Below, one piece after another: positions 57,827 to 64,000 of a stretch of DNA of 64,000 nt (positions are counted from its first letter, which is position 1; every line of letters starts with the position of its first letter). Below the pieces are notes generated by a model. It was not told the DNA's origin. It saw only the letters and a list, made by a program, of their open reading frames with translations, and searched no databases. The stretch comes from a virus, in IMG/VR virus record IMGVR_UViG_3300014202_000591; one strand, 5' to 3'. The position numbers and the translations under genes are program-made.

Positions 57827-58864
57827 CTATGCGGCCTCCGTGGTGGCAAATAGCGTTTTCTGACAATTGCGCCTTAATATCAGTTCGCAATATTCGCGGT
57901 TGAGTTCGATCAGAATTGCCCGCCGTCCAAACTTGTTGGCGACTTGGGCGGTCGTCCCACTGCCAGCGAAGGGATCGAGTACGGTTCCGCCTTCGGGACA
58001 TCCGGCGAGGACGCAGGGGGTGATAAGTTCGGGCGGATAGGTGGCGAAGTGGGCTTCGGGATAGGGCTTGGGCGAGACATTCCAGACCGAACGCTTGTTG
58101 CGCATCCCACCGCACTGCTCGGTTTTCTCCATTGCGTCCCATCGGTCATTAAATCCGGCACGGCGGCGCGAATGTCCACGCTGCTTGTCGGTGCGCGGGC
58201 GAATTCCATTAACCTGCGCAGTTGGTGCGCTTTTGTGCGACTTTAAGGCACGTCCAATTCGGTCATCGTCAGCATAAATGGCAGGCTCTTTGATGGCTTC
58301 GACATCGTAGAAATACCTCGCCGCCTTGCTGAGCATGAAAATATATTCGTGGCTTTTCGTGCATCGGTCAGCCACGCTTTCCGGCATCGGGTTTGGCTTC
58401 GCCCAGATAATGTCCTGGCGTAAATACCAACCGTCGGCGCGAAGAGCGAAGGCGAGCATCCACGGAATTCCGATGAGGTCTTTGGGTTTAATGCCAGCCA
58501 TCTTGGCGCGCTTATTTCGGACGGCAAAAGAAGGCACGTCGCCGCTCTCCGTAATCGTATGCTTGCCAGTATTCTGGCCGCCGCCCCATTTGTCGCTGTT
58601 GTTGTAGCTATCCCCAATATTCACCCACAACGTTCCATCGTCCTTCAGCACGCGCCGCACTTCGCGGAACACGTCCACCAGATTGGCAATGAACGCTTCC
58701 GGCGTCGGCTCAAGGCCGATCTGACCATCTACGCCGTAATCGCGCAGGCCGAAATACGGCGGCGACGTGACGCAGCAGTTCACCGATTCGTCCGGCAGTG
58801 CGCGCAATGCAGTCAGCGCATCGCCGTTATGGAGTATTAGCTGTGAATCATGGTGATAGATCAT
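57827..58864 (-). CDS. DNA methyltransferase, N4-C/N6-A beta family (SPPY)
   Basis: CCVTSPPYFGLRDY, HFATYPPEL and VLDPFAGSGTT; start MIYHHD at 58864. Confidence 0.93.
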   Translation of the reverse strand: MIYHHDSQLILHNGDALTALRALPDESVNCCVTSPPYFGLRDYGVDGQIGLEPTPEAFIANLVDVFREVRRVLKDDGTLWVNIGDSYNNSDKWGGGQNTGKHTITESGDVPSFAVRNKRAKMAGIKPKDLIGIPWMLAFALRADGWYLRQDIIWAKPNPMPESVADRCTKSHEYIFMLSKAARYFYDVEAIKEPAIYADDDRIGRALKSHKSAPTAQVNGIRPRTDKQRGHSRRRAGFNDRWDAMEKTEQCGGMRNKRSVWNVSPKPYPEAHFATYPPELITPCVLAGCPEGGTVLDPFAGSGTTAQVANKFGRRAILIELNREYCELILRRNCQKTLFATTEAA

Positions 58865-59036
58865 CTCCCTCCCTCCATCACTACAATCAACGGCCATCGA
58901 GCCGCCTCTTCCCACCCCGCGCGCCACAGCCGGGCAGCATTGGATTTCGGCGCGAACGGGCAGACAGATTCGCCCGCGAGATAATCGGCGCGCCCCATGG
59001 CGTGGATTTGGGCGGGGATGCTGCAATCGGTGATTT

Positions 59037-62015
59037 TCAAGCCGCCACCCCTTTCGCCTTCGCTTTGAATTCCGCCAGTTTCCGCCCAATGGCATCACTG
59101 GCTTCGCCCTTTGTGATCGTTTCCGCATCGTGCGGCACACGCCATTTCTTCAACTTTGCCAATTGATCCTCCGTTGCCGGATCGCGCCGCCACTTCGCGT
59201 CCGTGCCGCCAAAAAACAATGTCTTCGCAAACCCCTCCGCCGCCGCCCGGCATTCCGCCTCGGTGGCGCAAATCGCGCGGAACTCCTGCCCATCGGTGGC
59301 AATCCAGTTGTCGTCGGCCATGGGGCGAACGGTGATGATGCGGTTGCGGATGGTGAGGGTGGAGCGGTGGTTGATGGTGGATTGCCAGGTGAAAGACGGC
59401 TTTGGCTTTGGCTGCGGCATCTCCGCCCCACTAATCAAACTCACCCGCCTCGCCTCAAACTCCGCCTCGATCCGCTCCCGCTCTTCCTGCTCCGCGAGTG
59501 CCGCCGCGCGCTCCCGCTCCCCTTCCGCTGTCAATTCAATCAGTCCCTCGCGCTGCCGGCTGGGCTTTTCCTTGCCCGCCAATGAAGCGAGGTTGACCAG
59601 CTTGTGGCGCTTCGTTACGCCAACCAAATCCATCACCAGGAAGTTCGGCTTCCGGCTCGCCGCAATCGCCGCCAGCCGCTCTTCCGCTGTTTCCAGCCCG
59701 TCAATCACGCCGGGCAGCAATCGAGTGCCGCGCCCCAGCGTTTGCAGATAGCGTGATTTGCTCGCCGTCAGCGTTCCGATCAACAGGCATTCCGTTGTCG
59801 GCGAGTCCCAGCCGGTATTCAGACAGGCGACATTGACCAGCACCTGCAATTGGCCGGATTCATAATCCGCGAGTTTCTTCCGCCGTTCGCCCTTGTCGGT
59901 TTTGCCGTCAATCGCTGCGGCGCGAATCCCGCCCGCGCGCAGGTGGTCGGCAAGTTCCTTGGCCATTTCAACGCGCGGCACGAACATGGCAGTTTTCAGA
60001 TGCCCGGCGTGCGTGCGCCATTGCTCGGTGATGGCCTCTTTCCAGTTGTCGGCGCGGCGAATGAATTCCGCCACTTCGTTCTGATCAACGTCGCCACCGC
60101 GAGAGTGGACGTTGGTGAAGTCCGCGCCTTTGAGGCTGAATTGGAGCGAAATCGGCTCACAGAGCCAGCCTTCGCGGATGCCGTCAATGAGCGACATTTC
60201 GTAGGCGATGTCATCGAAGACTTCATCGAGGCCCCGGCCATCGAGGCGAAAAGGGGTCGCGCTGAGGCCCACCACAAGGGCATCCGGCGCGGCAACGTGT
60301 TCAATGACAGTCTTGTACGCATCAATGTTTAAGTGAGCTTCATCCACGATCACCGTTTGAAATCCGCCCTTTGGCAGCATCGCCAGCCGCTTCGCCTTGC
60401 GAACTGTATGCAGGCTGGCAATGACGATCCGCGCGTTTTTCTGATTCAGCCCCGCCTTGACAATCCCCACCGGGATGCCCGGATTTTCTGCCTGAACCGC
60501 TTTCGCATTTTGAAAAACCACTTCATCAATCGGCGCGAGAAACAGCGCGCGGCCAATCGGGGCGCGGCGCTTGATCAATTGGGATGCGAGGTAGGTATTA
60601 TGAGTAACAGTGAAATCACCGAGCAGAAATAGCCTGTCGCCATCAATTTCAAATCCGTAGTATTCGCCTTCGCCAATTGGCTCAACCTTGATGCCTGTTA
60701 CAAGGTGGTTTTTTATTTGACGCCGTTTTATGGCTCGCTTGCGTGGAATCTTGGACGGGATTTCTGAGGTGTCGCCTGAGATGTAGGCGACCCAGTACAC
60801 CCCAGCCTTGCCGTTATTGCAGCAAGTCTTTTTTCTTGGCTTAACTGACGCAGCGAAGCCTAGCGACCGGGCGATGAATGCAACATCGCTTGTAAGGCGC
60901 TGTGATAACGATACGTATTCAATGCCTGACTGGTCTTGCCCGTGCAGATAGCCATCACTGTCAACTAGCCCCGCCAAAAGTGCCAGTCTGACCTCGCGGC
61001 TGTTTGTTTTATATATCTGAGGAACGTGCTTATTGCCGCTCACGCCAAGACTTCTAAGCTGATCTCCCAGTGACCCCTTGTACTCCTTACGCCGAAGCGT
61101 GGAATAGCAAGGACACCTCCCCTTACAGATTTGCTTTTTTACAATATGCCCTATCCGCGCGGCATGTTCGTGCAGATAGTCAACAATCTCACTATCGGCG
61201 GTCGTAATGTTTGAATTGTGAGAAGTGCCATCGCCAAGCCACAAGCCTAAGAAATAGGGATCAATCGGCACAGCCTGCGCAGGCCATTCAACGCCAGTCC
61301 GCCATCCTTTTGCGCAGTGCTTAAAAGTCTTGTTTTGGCTCAAGTAATCAAGAATTGAAATGTTGACGATTGAACCGGGCAGGTAGCCGGACACCTTTTT
61401 GACGAAGCCGTTTTTCGTGTTGGTTATTTTCAGTGAAAGAATATGGGCCTCGTTGACAATGTACGGATCGCCCTTAACCGGTACTACCTTGTAAAGATTG
61501 TCGCGGCCTTGAGCGGTTGAAAGCACGTTGCGCGGCTGCGAGTCCGGCCCCATCAGCACGTCGCCTGTCTGAACATCCTGCACGGCCTTTACTGTGCCAT
61601 CGAACATCAGAACCGGCGTATCTTTCCCAAGGCACTTGCCCAATCCGGTCGCCTGGGCGATGACGGGGCGCTTGATGCCGCGCGCGAATGCGGCATCAAT
61701 GGCATCGAGGGCGCGGATTTGATATGGGCGGGGGCGTTTTGCTGCGGGCGTGACATTGGCCCTGAAATCCTGTAGGCGATTGCCCTTGGCGTTGTTGCAG
61801 GCGGCGCAAAGCAGTTGCAGATTGGATAGCAGCGATGGCCCGCCCTGTGCCACGGGGTGAATGTGGTCAATCTGCATCTTCCCCGCCGCGCCGCATCGGG
61901 CGCACCGCTCACCATCACGGGCCACCAATAACGAATAGAAAGTGGTGTAGCTGTCGCGGAGTTCGGCGCGAACATCGGCGCGGGCGGAGGTGATGAGGGT
62001 GGAAACAATGCTCAA
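59037..62015 (-). CDS. SF2 (DEAH, ResIII-like) helicase with N-terminal HNH domain and an intein
   Basis: TTG start after GGAGG; CARC...IDHIHP...NLQLLCAACNNAKG; ATGLGK/T; VDEAH; GLSATPFRLDG; LNTGWDSP; QTLGRGTR. Confidence 0.92.
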   Translation of the reverse strand: MSIVSTLITSARADVRAELRDSYTTFYSLLVARDGERCARCGAAGKMQIDHIHPVAQGGPSLLSNLQLLCAACNNAKGNRLQDFRANVTPAAKRPRPYQIRALDAIDAAFARGIKRPVIAQATGLGKCLGKDTPVLMFDGTVKAVQDVQTGDVLMGPDSQPRNVLSTAQGRDNLYKVVPVKGDPYIVNEAHILSLKITNTKNGFVKKVSGYLPGSIVNISILDYLSQNKTFKHCAKGWRTGVEWPAQAVPIDPYFLGLWLGDGTSHNSNITTADSEIVDYLHEHAARIGHIVKKQICKGRCPCYSTLRRKEYKGSLGDQLRSLGVSGNKHVPQIYKTNSREVRLALLAGLVDSDGYLHGQDQSGIEYVSLSQRLTSDVAFIARSLGFAASVKPRKKTCCNNGKAGVYWVAYISGDTSEIPSKIPRKRAIKRRQIKNHLVTGIKVEPIGEGEYYGFEIDGDRLFLLGDFTVTHNTYLASQLIKRRAPIGRALFLAPIDEVVFQNAKAVQAENPGIPVGIVKAGLNQKNARIVIASLHTVRKAKRLAMLPKGGFQTVIVDEAHLNIDAYKTVIEHVAAPDALVVGLSATPFRLDGRGLDEVFDDIAYEMSLIDGIREGWLCEPISLQFSLKGADFTNVHSRGGDVDQNEVAEFIRRADNWKEAITEQWRTHAGHLKTAMFVPRVEMAKELADHLRAGGIRAAAIDGKTDKGERRKKLADYESGQLQVLVNVACLNTGWDSPTTECLLIGTLTASKSRYLQTLGRGTRLLPGVIDGLETAEERLAAIAASRKPNFLVMDLVGVTKRHKLVNLASLAGKEKPSRQREGLIELTAEGERERAAALAEQEERERIEAEFEARRVSLISGAEMPQPKPKPSFTWQSTINHRSTLTIRNRIITVRPMADDNWIATDGQEFRAICATEAECRAAAEGFAKTLFFGGTDAKWRRDPATEDQLAKLKKWRVPHDAETITKGEASDAIGRKLAEFKAKAKGVAA
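60597..61634 (-). mobile_element. Intein (346 aa) with LAGLIDADG homing endonuclease
   Basis: Starts CLGKDTPVLMFDG and ends FLLGDFTVTHN with +1 Thr; YFLGLWLGDG and LLAGLVDSDG motifs; lower GC. Confidence 0.93.
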
Positions 62016-64000
62016 GACGCGGCCTCCTGCTCGGCAATTCGCCGCGCAATCCATTCCACGGTGGGAACGCAGACCGCATTGCCCAACATCCTGTAACGTG
62101 CGCTGTCGCTGATTGGTTTGCCATCGTCGCCGAAGGCAGTCCAGCCGAACTTTGTCCGAACCTCAATCCTGAATGAATTGCCGGTTTGTGTTTTTAAGGG
62201 AATGAACCCACTTATGGCACTTACAACAGAGCAACACGAGGTTATCAATTGCTGTTCTAAGCTCGGCGCACTTGAAGGGCTTGATGTGGTGGACTTCGTA
62301 GGTCTGCTCTGAGTGGTCAAATCTTCGCTGGCATCGCTGACAAGTGGCATCATCGCGCTTCCAGATAGCCTTACAAGCGGCACGCCATTCCTTTGACTTA
62401 TGGAACATGTCCCGCTCGGATGAGATTCCGCCTTGCCATCTTGGGTTATTTGGGCCGCTGTTGAATTGATAAGCACACTCAGGCGAACAAAATCTTCTGG
62501 ACTGATAGACGGGAGACACCAGCTTGCTTTCCCCGCATTGCTGGCAAACCAGAACGACCTTTCTTGACTGCGAATTTCGACTCCGCTCGCCCCGCAAAAG
62601 ATATGCACATCGTTCTGAGCAGGTTTGCTGTCGCTTGGATAGCTTGGCCGTGTATTCAGTGCCGCAGATTTGGCACTTTGATTTTGATTGATTCTTTCGG
62701 CATTCCCAGCAGGTTTTGGCAACTTGGGACTTTGGCTTTCCGCATTTACAAGGCTCTTTAGAAAGTCTAAGCATATCTCTATTATAGCAGCATTCTCGAC
62801 TTCCGGGAATCCCTGCAATCGCTCGCACTCGGTTGGAGTGAGGCGGCGAACGCCGAACTGACCGGCAATCGTTGGCGAATTTCTGCCGGTTGCGTCCCCA
62901 TTGGTGTTTAATGTGTAGGCGATGTCTGACGATCGAACTTCGTCGTTGGCGTTGATCTGCATTGCCATTACGTAGCTTTGCTGCTTCATCCCCGCTTCGG
63001 CGGCCAGAGCTCCGGCAATTTGCCCATCGCCATTGATGTAGCGAACTTCATCGCGGGTGTTTTGGGCGAAGGCGATGGCAGTCACCTGGCCAACGTGTAG
63101 GCAGGAAGTTTTATCAGGATCAGCGCCAAGCGTGGTTTGATTGCCGCCTGCTTGCCAGTTAAAGGCAACCAAGTGTTCGCCCGGTTCCGTTCTGAAGCCG
63201 CCCGTGTTGCCGCCGCTGTTCAGTGTCGCGGCGATCGCCGGAACTAATCCGTCGGCAAACTCAAATCCGCTGTGCGCGTCGCCGTTACTTCTGAGTGTTC
63301 CAGCGATTTCCTGTTCAACGATGTCTCCGGGGAATCCGCAAGTCTGGTTAGCATTAGCTGTAAGAGTTTCGGCAGTTCGCGACCCCGCTTCTCTGCGCGG
63401 CGGAGAATCCCACGCGCTGCCGTTGGGGAGAGGAAATACTTGCTCTCCACACTCGGCTCCAATACTTCGGAGAGAATCACCTGTCTGTTCGGCTTCTGCG
63501 ATGAAATCACCCCACGGCTGAATCCAGGATGATTCTGTAAAAAGAGAGTTACTTGTCTGTCTCGCATAGTTCGTAAATCCCTGCAACGCGGTTAAAGCAG
63601 ATGACCCCGCGCTCCAAAAGGCCGGACAGGAGGTCGGTGAGAGAATGATGAGCTTTGCTATGCTCAGCATCAGTTGCGCACAGGTGAAGATTTTCGATTC
63701 TGTTATCGCGCTTGCGTCCGTTGATGTGATGCACTCGCTCATTGTCAGCAAGCACTCGTCCAAGATGTCGCTCCATAACATCTCGGTGCTCTGCTTTTCT
63801 TCGATACTTACCGTTTGCTTTTGCGATCTTGGTAATCTTGTACCCTCGAAATTCTTTAAGTCCTCCTGAAAATTGCTTCCAAGATGCGATACCAAGTCGT
63901 CTAGCTCTTTGTCTAACGACAGCGGGATCACGGCCAAGTTCTCGCGCAACGTCTGTGCTTGTCCGTCCTCTTGCATTCCGAATAACTTCATCCTCTGCTT
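62012..64000 (-). CDS. C5 DNA cytosine methyltransferase, C-terminal part (5' end outside the window), with two in-frame foreign insertions
   Basis: Motif IX VRRLTPTECERLQGFP and motif X ARYRMLGNAVCVPTVEWIARRI; repetitive TRD-like region; frame open from the window edge. Confidence 0.88.
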   Translation of the reverse strand, partial: KQRMKLFGMQEDGQAQTLRENLAVIPLSLDKELDDLVSHLGSNFQEDLKNFEGTRLPRSQKQTVSIEEKQSTEMLWSDILDECLLTMSECITSTDASAITESKIFTCAQLMLSIAKLIILSPTSCPAFWSAGSSALTALQGFTNYARQTSNSLFTESSWIQPWGDFIAEAEQTGDSLRSIGAECGEQVFPLPNGSAWDSPPRREAGSRTAETLTANANQTCGFPGDIVEQEIAGTLRSNGDAHSGFEFADGLVPAIAATLNSGGNTGGFRTEPGEHLVAFNWQAGGNQTTLGADPDKTSCLHVGQVTAIAFAQNTRDEVRYINGDGQIAGALAAEAGMKQQSYVMAMQINANDEVRSSDIAYTLNTNGDATGRNSPTIAGQFGVRRLTPTECERLQGFPEVENAAIIEICLDFLKSLVNAESQSPKLPKPAGNAERINQNQSAKSAALNTRPSYPSDSKPAQNDVHIFCGASGVEIRSQERSFWFASNAGKASWCLPSISPEDFVRLSVLINSTAAQITQDGKAESHPSGTCSISQRNGVPLVRLSGSAMMPLVSDASEDLTTQSRPTKSTTSSPSSAPSLEQQLITSCCSVVSAISGFIPLKTQTGNSFRIEVRTKFGWTAFGDDGKPISDSARYRMLGNAVCVPTVEWIARRIAEQEAAS
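62163..62774 (-). CDS. HNH endonuclease nested in the -1 frame of the C5 methyltransferase
   Basis: MLRLSKEPCKCG...; zinc fingers CQIC/CSERC and CQQC/CSPEC; GPNNPRWQGG; RDDATCQRC...EVHHIKPF...IDNLVLLCCKCHKWVH; own TGCTATAAT box upstream. Confidence 0.9.
   Translation of the reverse strand: MLRLSKEPCKCGKPKSQVAKTCWECRKNQSKSKCQICGTEYTAKLSKRQQTCSERCAYLLRGERSRNSQSRKVVLVCQQCGESKLVSPVYQSRRFCSPECAYQFNSGPNNPRWQGGISSERDMFHKSKEWRAACKAIWKRDDATCQRCQRRFDHSEQTYEVHHIKPFKCAELRTAIDNLVLLCCKCHKWVHSLKNTNRQFIQD
63549..63998 (-). CDS. Second HNH endonuclease (HNH_3 type with HTH) nested in the -1 frame; 5' end outside the window
   Basis: Manual extension gives AEDEVIRNARGRTSTDVARELGRDPAVVRQRARRLGI...AEHRDVMERHLGRVLADNERVHHINGRKRDNRIENLHLC. 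Confidence 0.88.
   Translation of the reverse strand, partial: AEDEVIRNARGRTSTDVARELGRDPAVVRQRARRLGIASWKQFSGGLKEFRGYKITKIAKANGKYRRKAEHRDVMERHLGRVLADNERVHHINGRKRDNRIENLHLCATDAEHSKAHHSLTDLLSGLLERGVICFNRVAGIYELCETDK

Follow-up and report, generated by a model that had tools for sequence, protein, structure and literature searches.

How can a complete endonuclease gene lie in a shifted frame of an enzyme gene and leave the frame of that enzyme readable from end to end? The question is raised by a 64,000-nucleotide stretch of viral DNA from the IMG/VR record IMGVR_UViG_3300014202_000591 (here called the window), in the last part of which a homing-type HNH_3 gene is nested in the gene of a C5 cytosine-methyltransferase. 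The window corresponds to C1:2942-66941 of a provirus record 68.5 kb long; the remainder of that contig is covered by L002, and adding 58058 to an L002 position gives the window coordinate. The answer probably is that the HNH_3 gene occupies a shifted frame of the methyltransferase gene, that the host gene is read through, and that no splicing is involved.

The host open reading frame (ORF; frame 0, 879 codons) lies on the minus strand, as do all features of the window given below, at 62012..64000 and continues to an ATG at window-equivalent 64651; no host-frame stop was found just upstream of the window, and the frame is open to that ATG. The ORF was assigned by Pfam PF00145 and by tblastn with the methylases of Rctr41k, TC7 and VpaJT_1. 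C5-methyltransferase motifs I, IV (PCQ), VI (ENV), VIII (QRRR), IX and X follow in order in this one frame, and over the N-terminal 161 residues identity with the methylase of virus Rctr41k, which is uninterrupted, amounts to 60%. The first four of these motifs, I to VIII, fall at 64169-64633, beyond the window; motif IX (FGVRRLTPTECERLQGFPE) is located at 62801..62857, and motif X with the C-terminal helix (RYRMLGNAVCVPTVEWIARRI) at 62036..62098.

The nested HNH_3 ORF is in frame 2, that is -1 relative to the host, and has 206 codons from its ATG to a TAA stop at 63549-63551 (full extent 63549-64169). Its part within the window, 63549..64000, is open for 149 codons (63549..63998) up to the window edge. 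An earlier note on this DNA, made from the letters alone, had placed a helix-turn-helix (HTH) plus HNH_3 endonuclease here with the -1 offset, and Pfam, PHROGs and the ORF on the full contig bear this out. The Pfam match to HNH_3 (PF13392) has an E value of 2.2e-9 and 37.2 bits, against a cut-off of 24.8; in PHROGs, HNH endonuclease families are matched, with an N-terminal match to an HTH/D5-like regulator. The catalytic His and Asn are invariant among nine relatives. The 5' junction, predicted to lie after motif VIII, is indeed there: the ATG stands 0-3 nucleotides past the motif and, in this gene, directly past QRRRRVFIV, as GT-ATG-C across the Val-Cys codons.

Another nested HNH ORF, the first along the window, lies between motifs IX and X at 62163..62828. 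It has 221 codons, also in frame 2, and was assigned by Pfam and PHROGs to the zinc-ribbon type (PF01844). The two nested nucleases thus belong to unrelated families (PF13392 and PF01844) and share the same offset to the host, as the earlier note had said. For the first insertion (62147-62800), shuffling of synonymous codons leaves the host frame open with P 0.16; the in-frame insert is present in six relatives, and an empty site is found in one relative (L002 4074->4765, with 36 letters between) among the contigs of four sequencing runs, those labelled RNA-Seq being probably DNA. Among the runs listed as containing this sequence there is no RNA run, and the best is a groundwater DNA run, probably the source sample. 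Both nested ORFs have 49% GC, compared with 57% in the genome.

The codon choices of the HNH_3 ORF had been read as avoiding host-frame stops, and the counts agree with that list: Leu is CTT 9, CTC 5, CTG 2, CTA 1 and TTG 1; Val is GTT 7, GTC 3 and GTG 2; Ile is ATT 4 and ATC 5. Codons ending in TA or TG (xTA/xTG) number 9 of 207, and none precedes a stop-forming base. Over 63549-64169 the host frame contains no stop and the remaining frame 19. The probability that the host frame is open is 0.05 when the ORF's own synonymous codons are shuffled and 0.00025 with genome codon usage. Across ten lineages (this phage, eight methyltransferase relatives for which DNA was available, and the cluster J mycobacteriophage Hannaconda), the synonymous-shuffle probability ranges from 0.0002 to 0.057 per lineage; in Hannaconda and the eight relatives the intact HNH is always in frame 2.

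The host-frame insert, used as a query, retrieved 24 further methyltransferase ORFs of 529-809 residues, with 34-48% identity over the insert; their N-terminal sequences differ, yet the same in-frame insert is found in the same place. These relatives were found through an open host frame. A search of IMG/VR viral contigs with HNH proteins, by contrast, is blind to the host frame. It yielded 24 full-length relatives, 18 of them after motif VIII, three at a second site and three free-standing. Host-frame stops are absent from all 21 nested relatives (host ORFs of 406-997 residues), in which the remaining frame has 6-26, and the equivalent frame of the three free-standing relatives has 13-18. The proposal that these insertions reflect a repeatable strategy and not chance is upheld by the 21 of 21. 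Earlier searches of viral contigs with a single HNH protein or an insert alignment as query had given no confirmed loci.

The second-site relatives (L040, L041 and L042 of IMG/VR) carry the same HNH family after Pfam position ~129, upstream of motif VIII, and there too the C5-methyltransferase frame is open (422-688 residues). In another relative (L017 2031-2860), the HNH is without its TAA stop and extends some 70 codons further; the start codon of the downstream ORF described below is still present.

A comparison with free-standing HNH_3 genes had also been proposed. In 54 non-nested HNH_3-family ORFs of the same loci, xTA/xTG codons account for 11.5%, against 6.0% in the nested HNH_3, and the host-equivalent frame has a median of 5.6 stops per 100 codons, each of these ORFs having at least one. 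Their other frame has a median of 8.75. The host frame is +1 relative to the HNH in both inserts of this gene, in the second-site relatives and in the published ShiLan element considered below; since fewer stops occur there to begin with (5.6 against 8.75 per 100 codons), the host-equivalent frame would be the easier one to clear through synonymous choices. The open host frame is not due to chance; it is held open by selection on codon choice.

Is the host-frame peptide itself selected, or only its freedom from stops? The constraint was measured in 45 pairs from 10 lineages, in which the HNH ORF was compared with the single-coding N-domain of the methyltransferase from the same genomes, at an amino-acid identity of 0.47. 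Nucleotide identity at codon positions 1, 2 and 3 is 0.56, 0.65 and 0.52 in the HNH ORF and 0.56, 0.67 and 0.31 in the N-domain control. Given an identical residue, the codon is also identical in 0.58 of cases in the HNH ORF and in 0.34 of cases in the control. The host-frame peptide has an identity of 0.374, against 0.229 +/- 0.004 under a synonymous-shuffle null. The overprinted peptide is therefore constrained in sequence, beyond the mere absence of stops. AlphaFold2, given an alignment of 25 sequences, models the insert as an all-helical bundle with a mean predicted local distance difference test score (pLDDT) of 72 and a predicted template modelling score (pTM) of 0.70, and a Foldseek search of the PDB with this model gave no match at E<=0.001. 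A predicted helical insert of this kind fits a sequence born through overprinting.

The start of the nuclease gene leaves its mark on the host. In 21 genes nested after motif VIII, AGA or AGG (AGR) accounts for 72.5% of the Arg codons in that motif. In seven uninterrupted relatives, none of 27 is AGR and all are CGN. In those 21 genes, AGR codons form AGGAGG or GAAGG 8-12 nucleotides upstream of the HNH ATG, which mostly sits in GT-ATG; in this phage, an AGGAGG made of motif VIII Arg codons lies 11 nucleotides upstream of the HNH_3 ATG. Because these codons yield such sequences ahead of the ATG, the recoded motif VIII would double as the Shine-Dalgarno site of the HNH. The change from CGN to AGR probably also removes the homing site from invaded alleles. 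The spread of the element is patchy, since the insert is found in methyltransferases with differing N-terminal sequences and uninterrupted relatives exist. Judged from these sequences, the HNH_3 element is mobile, because the identity of the HNH shows no correlation with that of the host N-domain (Spearman 0.08, p 0.59).

A third frame is also in use. The ORF here named type-B (frame 1, 107 codons, 63244..63567) starts at an ATG inside the last HNH codons (63565-63567) and was recognized from relatives and predicted binding. Its product, LSEVLE...KYFLS..A..GILRRAEKRG.ELP, corresponds to the canonical stretch that follows motif VIII and opens the target-recognition domain (TRD). Comparison with uninterrupted relatives identifies 63458..63514, at the 3' end of the insertion, as a degenerate duplicate of the motif VIII region; the host frame there reads WGDFIAEAEQTGDSLRSIG and QRRRR is lost, and frame 1 retains the type-B N-terminus. 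The host-frame linker, type A (63380..63448), overlaps the type-B ORF. It consists of a degenerate VLFEREG..P.REAG block with an open frame and poorly conserved sequence.

Type-B peptides are 51-63% identical across relatives, above the conservation of the HNH or the insert, and the type-B start ATG is conserved in nested genes. No family was found for the peptide in PHROGs or Pfam, and its PDB matches are weak and confined to residues 236-279 of Dcm (E 0.06), the segment that follows motif VIII in single-chain enzymes. A type-B profile matches 2,576 protein clusters at E<=1e-10, including C-terminal half-enzymes; split genes encode type-B, the TRD and motifs IX-X in a single frame.

The same peptide is found where no nuclease is present. 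In the uninterrupted genes of P7 Dmt, CobraSix, TC7, VpaJT_1, Rctr41k, Dove and Omega, it is encoded +1 over motif VIII and the annotated linker, and the type-B frame is better conserved than the annotated frame in 21 of 21 pairs. Among 65 unique phage and bacterial sequences, nucleotide identity by type-B codon position is 0.73, 0.75 and 0.46, and at the amino-acid level the type-B frame reaches an identity of 0.70, the annotated frame 0.37 and the non-coding frame 0.36; the annotated methyltransferase frame is open over the overlap in 64 of the 65. A tblastn scan of bacterial species representatives gave at least 536 loci with a +1 ORF over motif VIII. In a census of bacterial genomes type-B is never in frame with motif VIII, and in 40 loci motifs VIII and IX share one frame with type-B +1 between them. 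The consensus of the +1 ORF in uninterrupted prophage and phage genes is YFLS.KACAGILRRAEKRGK.LP (loci L009, which is phage P7 dam/dmt at 2501-2740, L010, L007, L008, L003, L011, L012 and L102-L181). By these comparisons the type-B frame is under purifying selection in uninterrupted relatives, and selection is evident on all three frames. Because uninterrupted relatives carry type-B +1 over motif VIII, the HNH appears to be inserted into DNA that was already dual-coding. Literature searches returned no report of a conserved +1 ORF over motif VIII, and M.EcoHK31I is the nearest precedent.

Some bacterial loci show candidate starts for such a nested ORF. In one subfamily (L104, L109, L113, L117 and about 15 others), a +1 ATG arises from the conserved Tyr-Gly codons (TAT GGG) that precede motif VIII; this is seen at 19 of 52 sites, GC-rich genomes included, with the product MGSPT...TLN.SE.P. 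Ten other sites have a +1 ATG at an Asp-Ala junction. In a split-type relative (L101 1516-3026), motifs I-VI, motif VIII, and type-B with the TRD and motifs IX and X occupy three frames, and the two called ORFs abut at one base; this may be a genuine alpha/beta enzyme that bears an additional frameshift, or the assembly may be at fault.

Across 14 genes, the tail of type-B has no conserved slippery heptamer for a -1 shift. For this reason, and because the ATG is kept in nested genes, type-B is read here as a separately translated small chain. Since 63244-63567 is also coding, the host product is probably not one chain. Structure prediction was applied to one read-through enzyme (647 residues) and its own type-B peptide (88 residues). 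The predicted complex has an ipSAE interface score of 0.83, against 0.03 for the best of three controls, with contact agreement between runs of at least 68% and a partner pLDDT of at least 74. For calibration, 58 of 80 solved complexes and 2 of 110 mismatched pairs attained this mark; the counts apply only roughly, as custom alignments were used for the prediction. The predicted interface involves the motif VI-VIII region, motif IX, the C-terminal helix and the most conserved insert residues (176-183, 209-220 and 338-342). The prediction supports binding of type-B to the read-through enzyme.

Two other accounts of the third frame were considered and set aside. The frame-1 peptide might have been the second exon of a spliced gene that later suffered a frameshift error; this was dropped as uninterrupted relatives share the +1 peptide over motif VIII. 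Out-of-frame remodelling (PMC8788219) was considered for the type-A/type-B pair; that paper is silent on methylases, and decay of the old frame is contradicted by the 64 of 65 open sequences.

The following course of events is proposed. A homing-type HNH_3 gene would have invaded a phage or prophage C5-methyltransferase gene directly after motif VIII, at the hinge between the catalytic domain and the TRD. The element would be removed by neither RNA nor protein splicing; it would lie in the -1 frame with codons that leave the methyltransferase frame open. Ribosomes starting at the methyltransferase ATG would then read through and yield a methyltransferase enlarged by a mostly helical insert of about 240 residues. 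The nuclease would be translated separately from the junction ATG, with a Shine-Dalgarno sequence provided by motif VIII Arg codons recoded from CGN to AGA/AGG. Downstream of itself, the element would restore the type-B ORF, with a new ATG in the last HNH codons, and because this ORF is restored inside the HNH end, three frames would be in use in 63244-64169. The type-B peptide most likely is a small subunit docking onto the enzyme made by read-through.

Could the host frame be open for other reasons? A dead methyltransferase gene with an alternative frame open by base composition or decay is one candidate, as a genome of 57% GC lengthens spurious ORFs; however, the nested ORFs have just 49% GC, 18-19 stops interrupt the other alternative frame, all ten lineages give small shuffle probabilities, and the free-standing relatives have their 13-18 stops in the same frame. 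The controls reject this explanation, and its probability is negligible. Nearly as improbable is an atypical intein, although the host-frame insert is in frame, begins with Cys right after a conserved motif, and has a true intein for a neighbor in the adjoining helicase gene. Overlap with the HNH ATG (GTA-TGY) accounts for the Cys, which is Trp in P0013, PF00145 is the sole Pfam domain of the host ORF, and the insert model is a helical bundle with no Foldseek match in the PDB at the threshold given above. A self-splicing intron, of group I or an unknown class, with an open host frame that is merely incidental, has more behind it: HNH ORFs are common in phage group I introns, the SEA-PHAGES annotation of the homologous cluster J gene states "unable to determine intron boundaries", and spliced introns in other genes of cluster J phages are reported in PMC3706429, as cited in PMC11855218. 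Even so, it is very unlikely. Rfam at E<=1 on both strands of L002 3800-6800 (window 61858-64858) gave no intron family and one chance microRNA-like match. With the HNH ATG 0-3 nucleotides from the junction and the next ORF beginning in the HNH 3' end, there is no room for a non-coding ribozyme core of about 200 nucleotides. Splicing needs no open host frame, yet the frame is open in all 21 relatives of the host-frame-blind search and is constrained in sequence; the ShiLan study likewise found no intron (PMC11855218).

Programmed ribosomal frameshifting would use the frames differently, with a +1 shift into type-B after motif VIII and a -1 shift back, so that the host-frame insert and linker are never used. 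It accounts for type-B, and not the annotated frame, being the constrained one downstream of motif VIII, and for the frame that type-B, the TRD and motifs IX-X share in split genes. Yet a conserved slippery heptamer is missing from the type-B tail of the 14 genes, the type-B start ATG is conserved in nested genes, and frameshifting would not require the annotated frame to be open, as it is throughout the overlap in 64 of 65 sequences and across 200-plus codons in every nested gene; this explanation is very improbable. A somewhat better chance, though still a small one, may be given to a host frame kept open for translational reasons, either against Rho-dependent polarity downstream or as a throttle on the HNH start, in a methyltransferase that is dead or dispensable. 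Openness alone would then suffice, the enzyme here has two large inserts and a degenerate linker, and methylases are dispensable in related phages (PMC11855218). This leaves unexplained that motifs I-X are intact in this gene and in insert-carrying relatives, that the insert is conserved above the expectation for a by-product and has a predicted fold, and that its most conserved residues lie at the predicted type-B interface.

Several points weigh against read-through of an active enzyme around a separately started nuclease and small chain. The 11-nucleotide spacing from AGGAGG to the ATG in this phage is rather long. A young, horizontally spread element could partly explain the high third-position identity of the HNH. 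By a strict pattern, no type-B ORF is present in 4 of the 15 motif-VIII-nested IMG/VR loci. The predicted complex may have passed through likeness to solved single-chain C5-methyltransferases, because the segment is part of the chain in those structures. The host-frame VLFEREG linker of this phage is strongly degenerate, and the enzyme, which contains two large inserts, could be inactive yet young. That the read-through protein (879 residues) is made and active, that the HNH cuts the empty allele and that type-B is translated are inferred from sequence and prediction.

The closest published case is the ShiLan domain of actinophage methylases (Gosselin et al. 2023, PMC9957025; Arsenault, Gosselin & Gogarten 2025, PMC11855218). 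There, too, an HNH is encoded out of frame, in the third frame; the host frame is open, and neither an intron nor an intein is involved. The element seems to home actively, and a second type is found in phage Pacc40 (PMC11855218). The two elements are alike in having an HNH out of frame in a phage methylase ORF with a stop-free host frame, no intron or intein signature, a patchy, mobile-like spread over divergent methylases, an HNH that ends in TAA-C, and an in-frame reading predicted to be helical or loop-like. They differ in family, as ShiLan is a zinc-finger HNH and the present element HTH plus HNH_3; a tblastn search with the HNH_3 protein against 50,697 phage records (E<=1e-10) found only nine cluster J records from eight phages, and not ShiLan. 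Host and site also differ, being here a C5 cytosine-methyltransferase directly after motif VIII. The ShiLan paper proposes leaderless GTG starts with no detectable ribosome-binding site, in contrast to the ATG here with a putative Shine-Dalgarno sequence from recoded motif VIII codons. Unlike ShiLan, the present element rebuilds a third-frame ORF of its host and is widespread in metagenomic phages and prophages outside Actinobacteria. It is of the same kind as ShiLan and of a different family, a new and widespread lineage.

Parallels can also be drawn with other systems. M.EcoHK31I (Lee et al. 1995, cited from PMC2836561) is a heterodimeric C5-methyltransferase whose beta chain is wholly encoded in another frame of the alpha gene, both chains being needed for activity, an experimental precedent that lends the model plausibility. 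It resembles type-B as a small out-of-frame ORF in a C5-methyltransferase gene with a conserved piece of the fold; its nested piece is motif IX, and that of type-B the post-motif-VIII segment, a predicted subunit. Genes that free-standing homing endonucleases have left in pieces, and split C5-methyltransferases like M.AquI (PMC3404938), share with this gene an interruption without splicing; the host ORF here, in contrast, is unsplit, with one open frame across the nuclease gene. Intron-encoded HNHs (for example, of the I-HmuI type in phage group I introns) are likewise mobile HNHs at a conserved position coding for a catalytic site, but here no ribozyme was detected by Rfam and the host frame is maintained through the element.

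The surroundings of the gene are also rich in such elements. The adjacent helicase gene (1005 residues, 59037-62054) has an HNH domain at its N-terminus and an apparent LAGLIDADG-type intein, which starts with CLGKDT, contains LGLWLGDGTS and DSDGY blocks and ends in THN|T; the methyltransferase and helicase together hold at least three or four homing-type elements in a short span. Just downstream of the helicase, a second methyltransferase gene of the N4/N6 type (DPFAGSGTT and SPPY motifs) is located at 57827-59140. Past the window end, a minus-strand ORF at the contig end (L002 6754-7521, window-equivalent 64812-65579) starts with at least 11 tandem repeats of 8 residues (DNSSVEAW / DNSSVVAR), followed by a globular C-terminal part.

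A broader reading may be put forward tentatively, with somewhat more doubt than belief in the whole. A very large prophage and phage C5-methyltransferase family, including P1/P7 Dmt, would natively encode an essential +1 small subunit, and the HNH lineage would home to that place, surviving there through triple coding, with the small-subunit ORF rebuilt, and recoding motif VIII as its own ribosome-binding site. The annotated frame over motif VIII would then be an open linker only, and the overprinted helical peptide of the insert, itself selected, would touch the small subunit.

The ShiLan observation, made in 2025 in a few actinophages, is extended here to a second HNH family, a C5-methyltransferase host, and many metagenomic phages and prophages. 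New beyond the published case are the use of motif VIII as a putative ribosome-binding site, the selection on the overprinted peptide and the rebuilt third-frame ORF; a Shine-Dalgarno sequence from recoded catalytic-motif codons offers a concrete mechanism of translation. Both nested ORFs are systematically missed by gene callers. Hundreds of prophage cytosine-methyltransferase genes contain a strongly conserved and apparently unannotated +1 ORF, and are therefore probably mis-described in databases as single-chain enzymes. With sampling blind to the host frame and with free-standing controls, the comparisons show that a selfish nuclease gene can survive inside the gene of an enzyme with neither RNA nor protein splicing, by nothing more than a choice of codons that leaves the host frame readable, and that the accidental host-frame peptide then acquires selection of its own.

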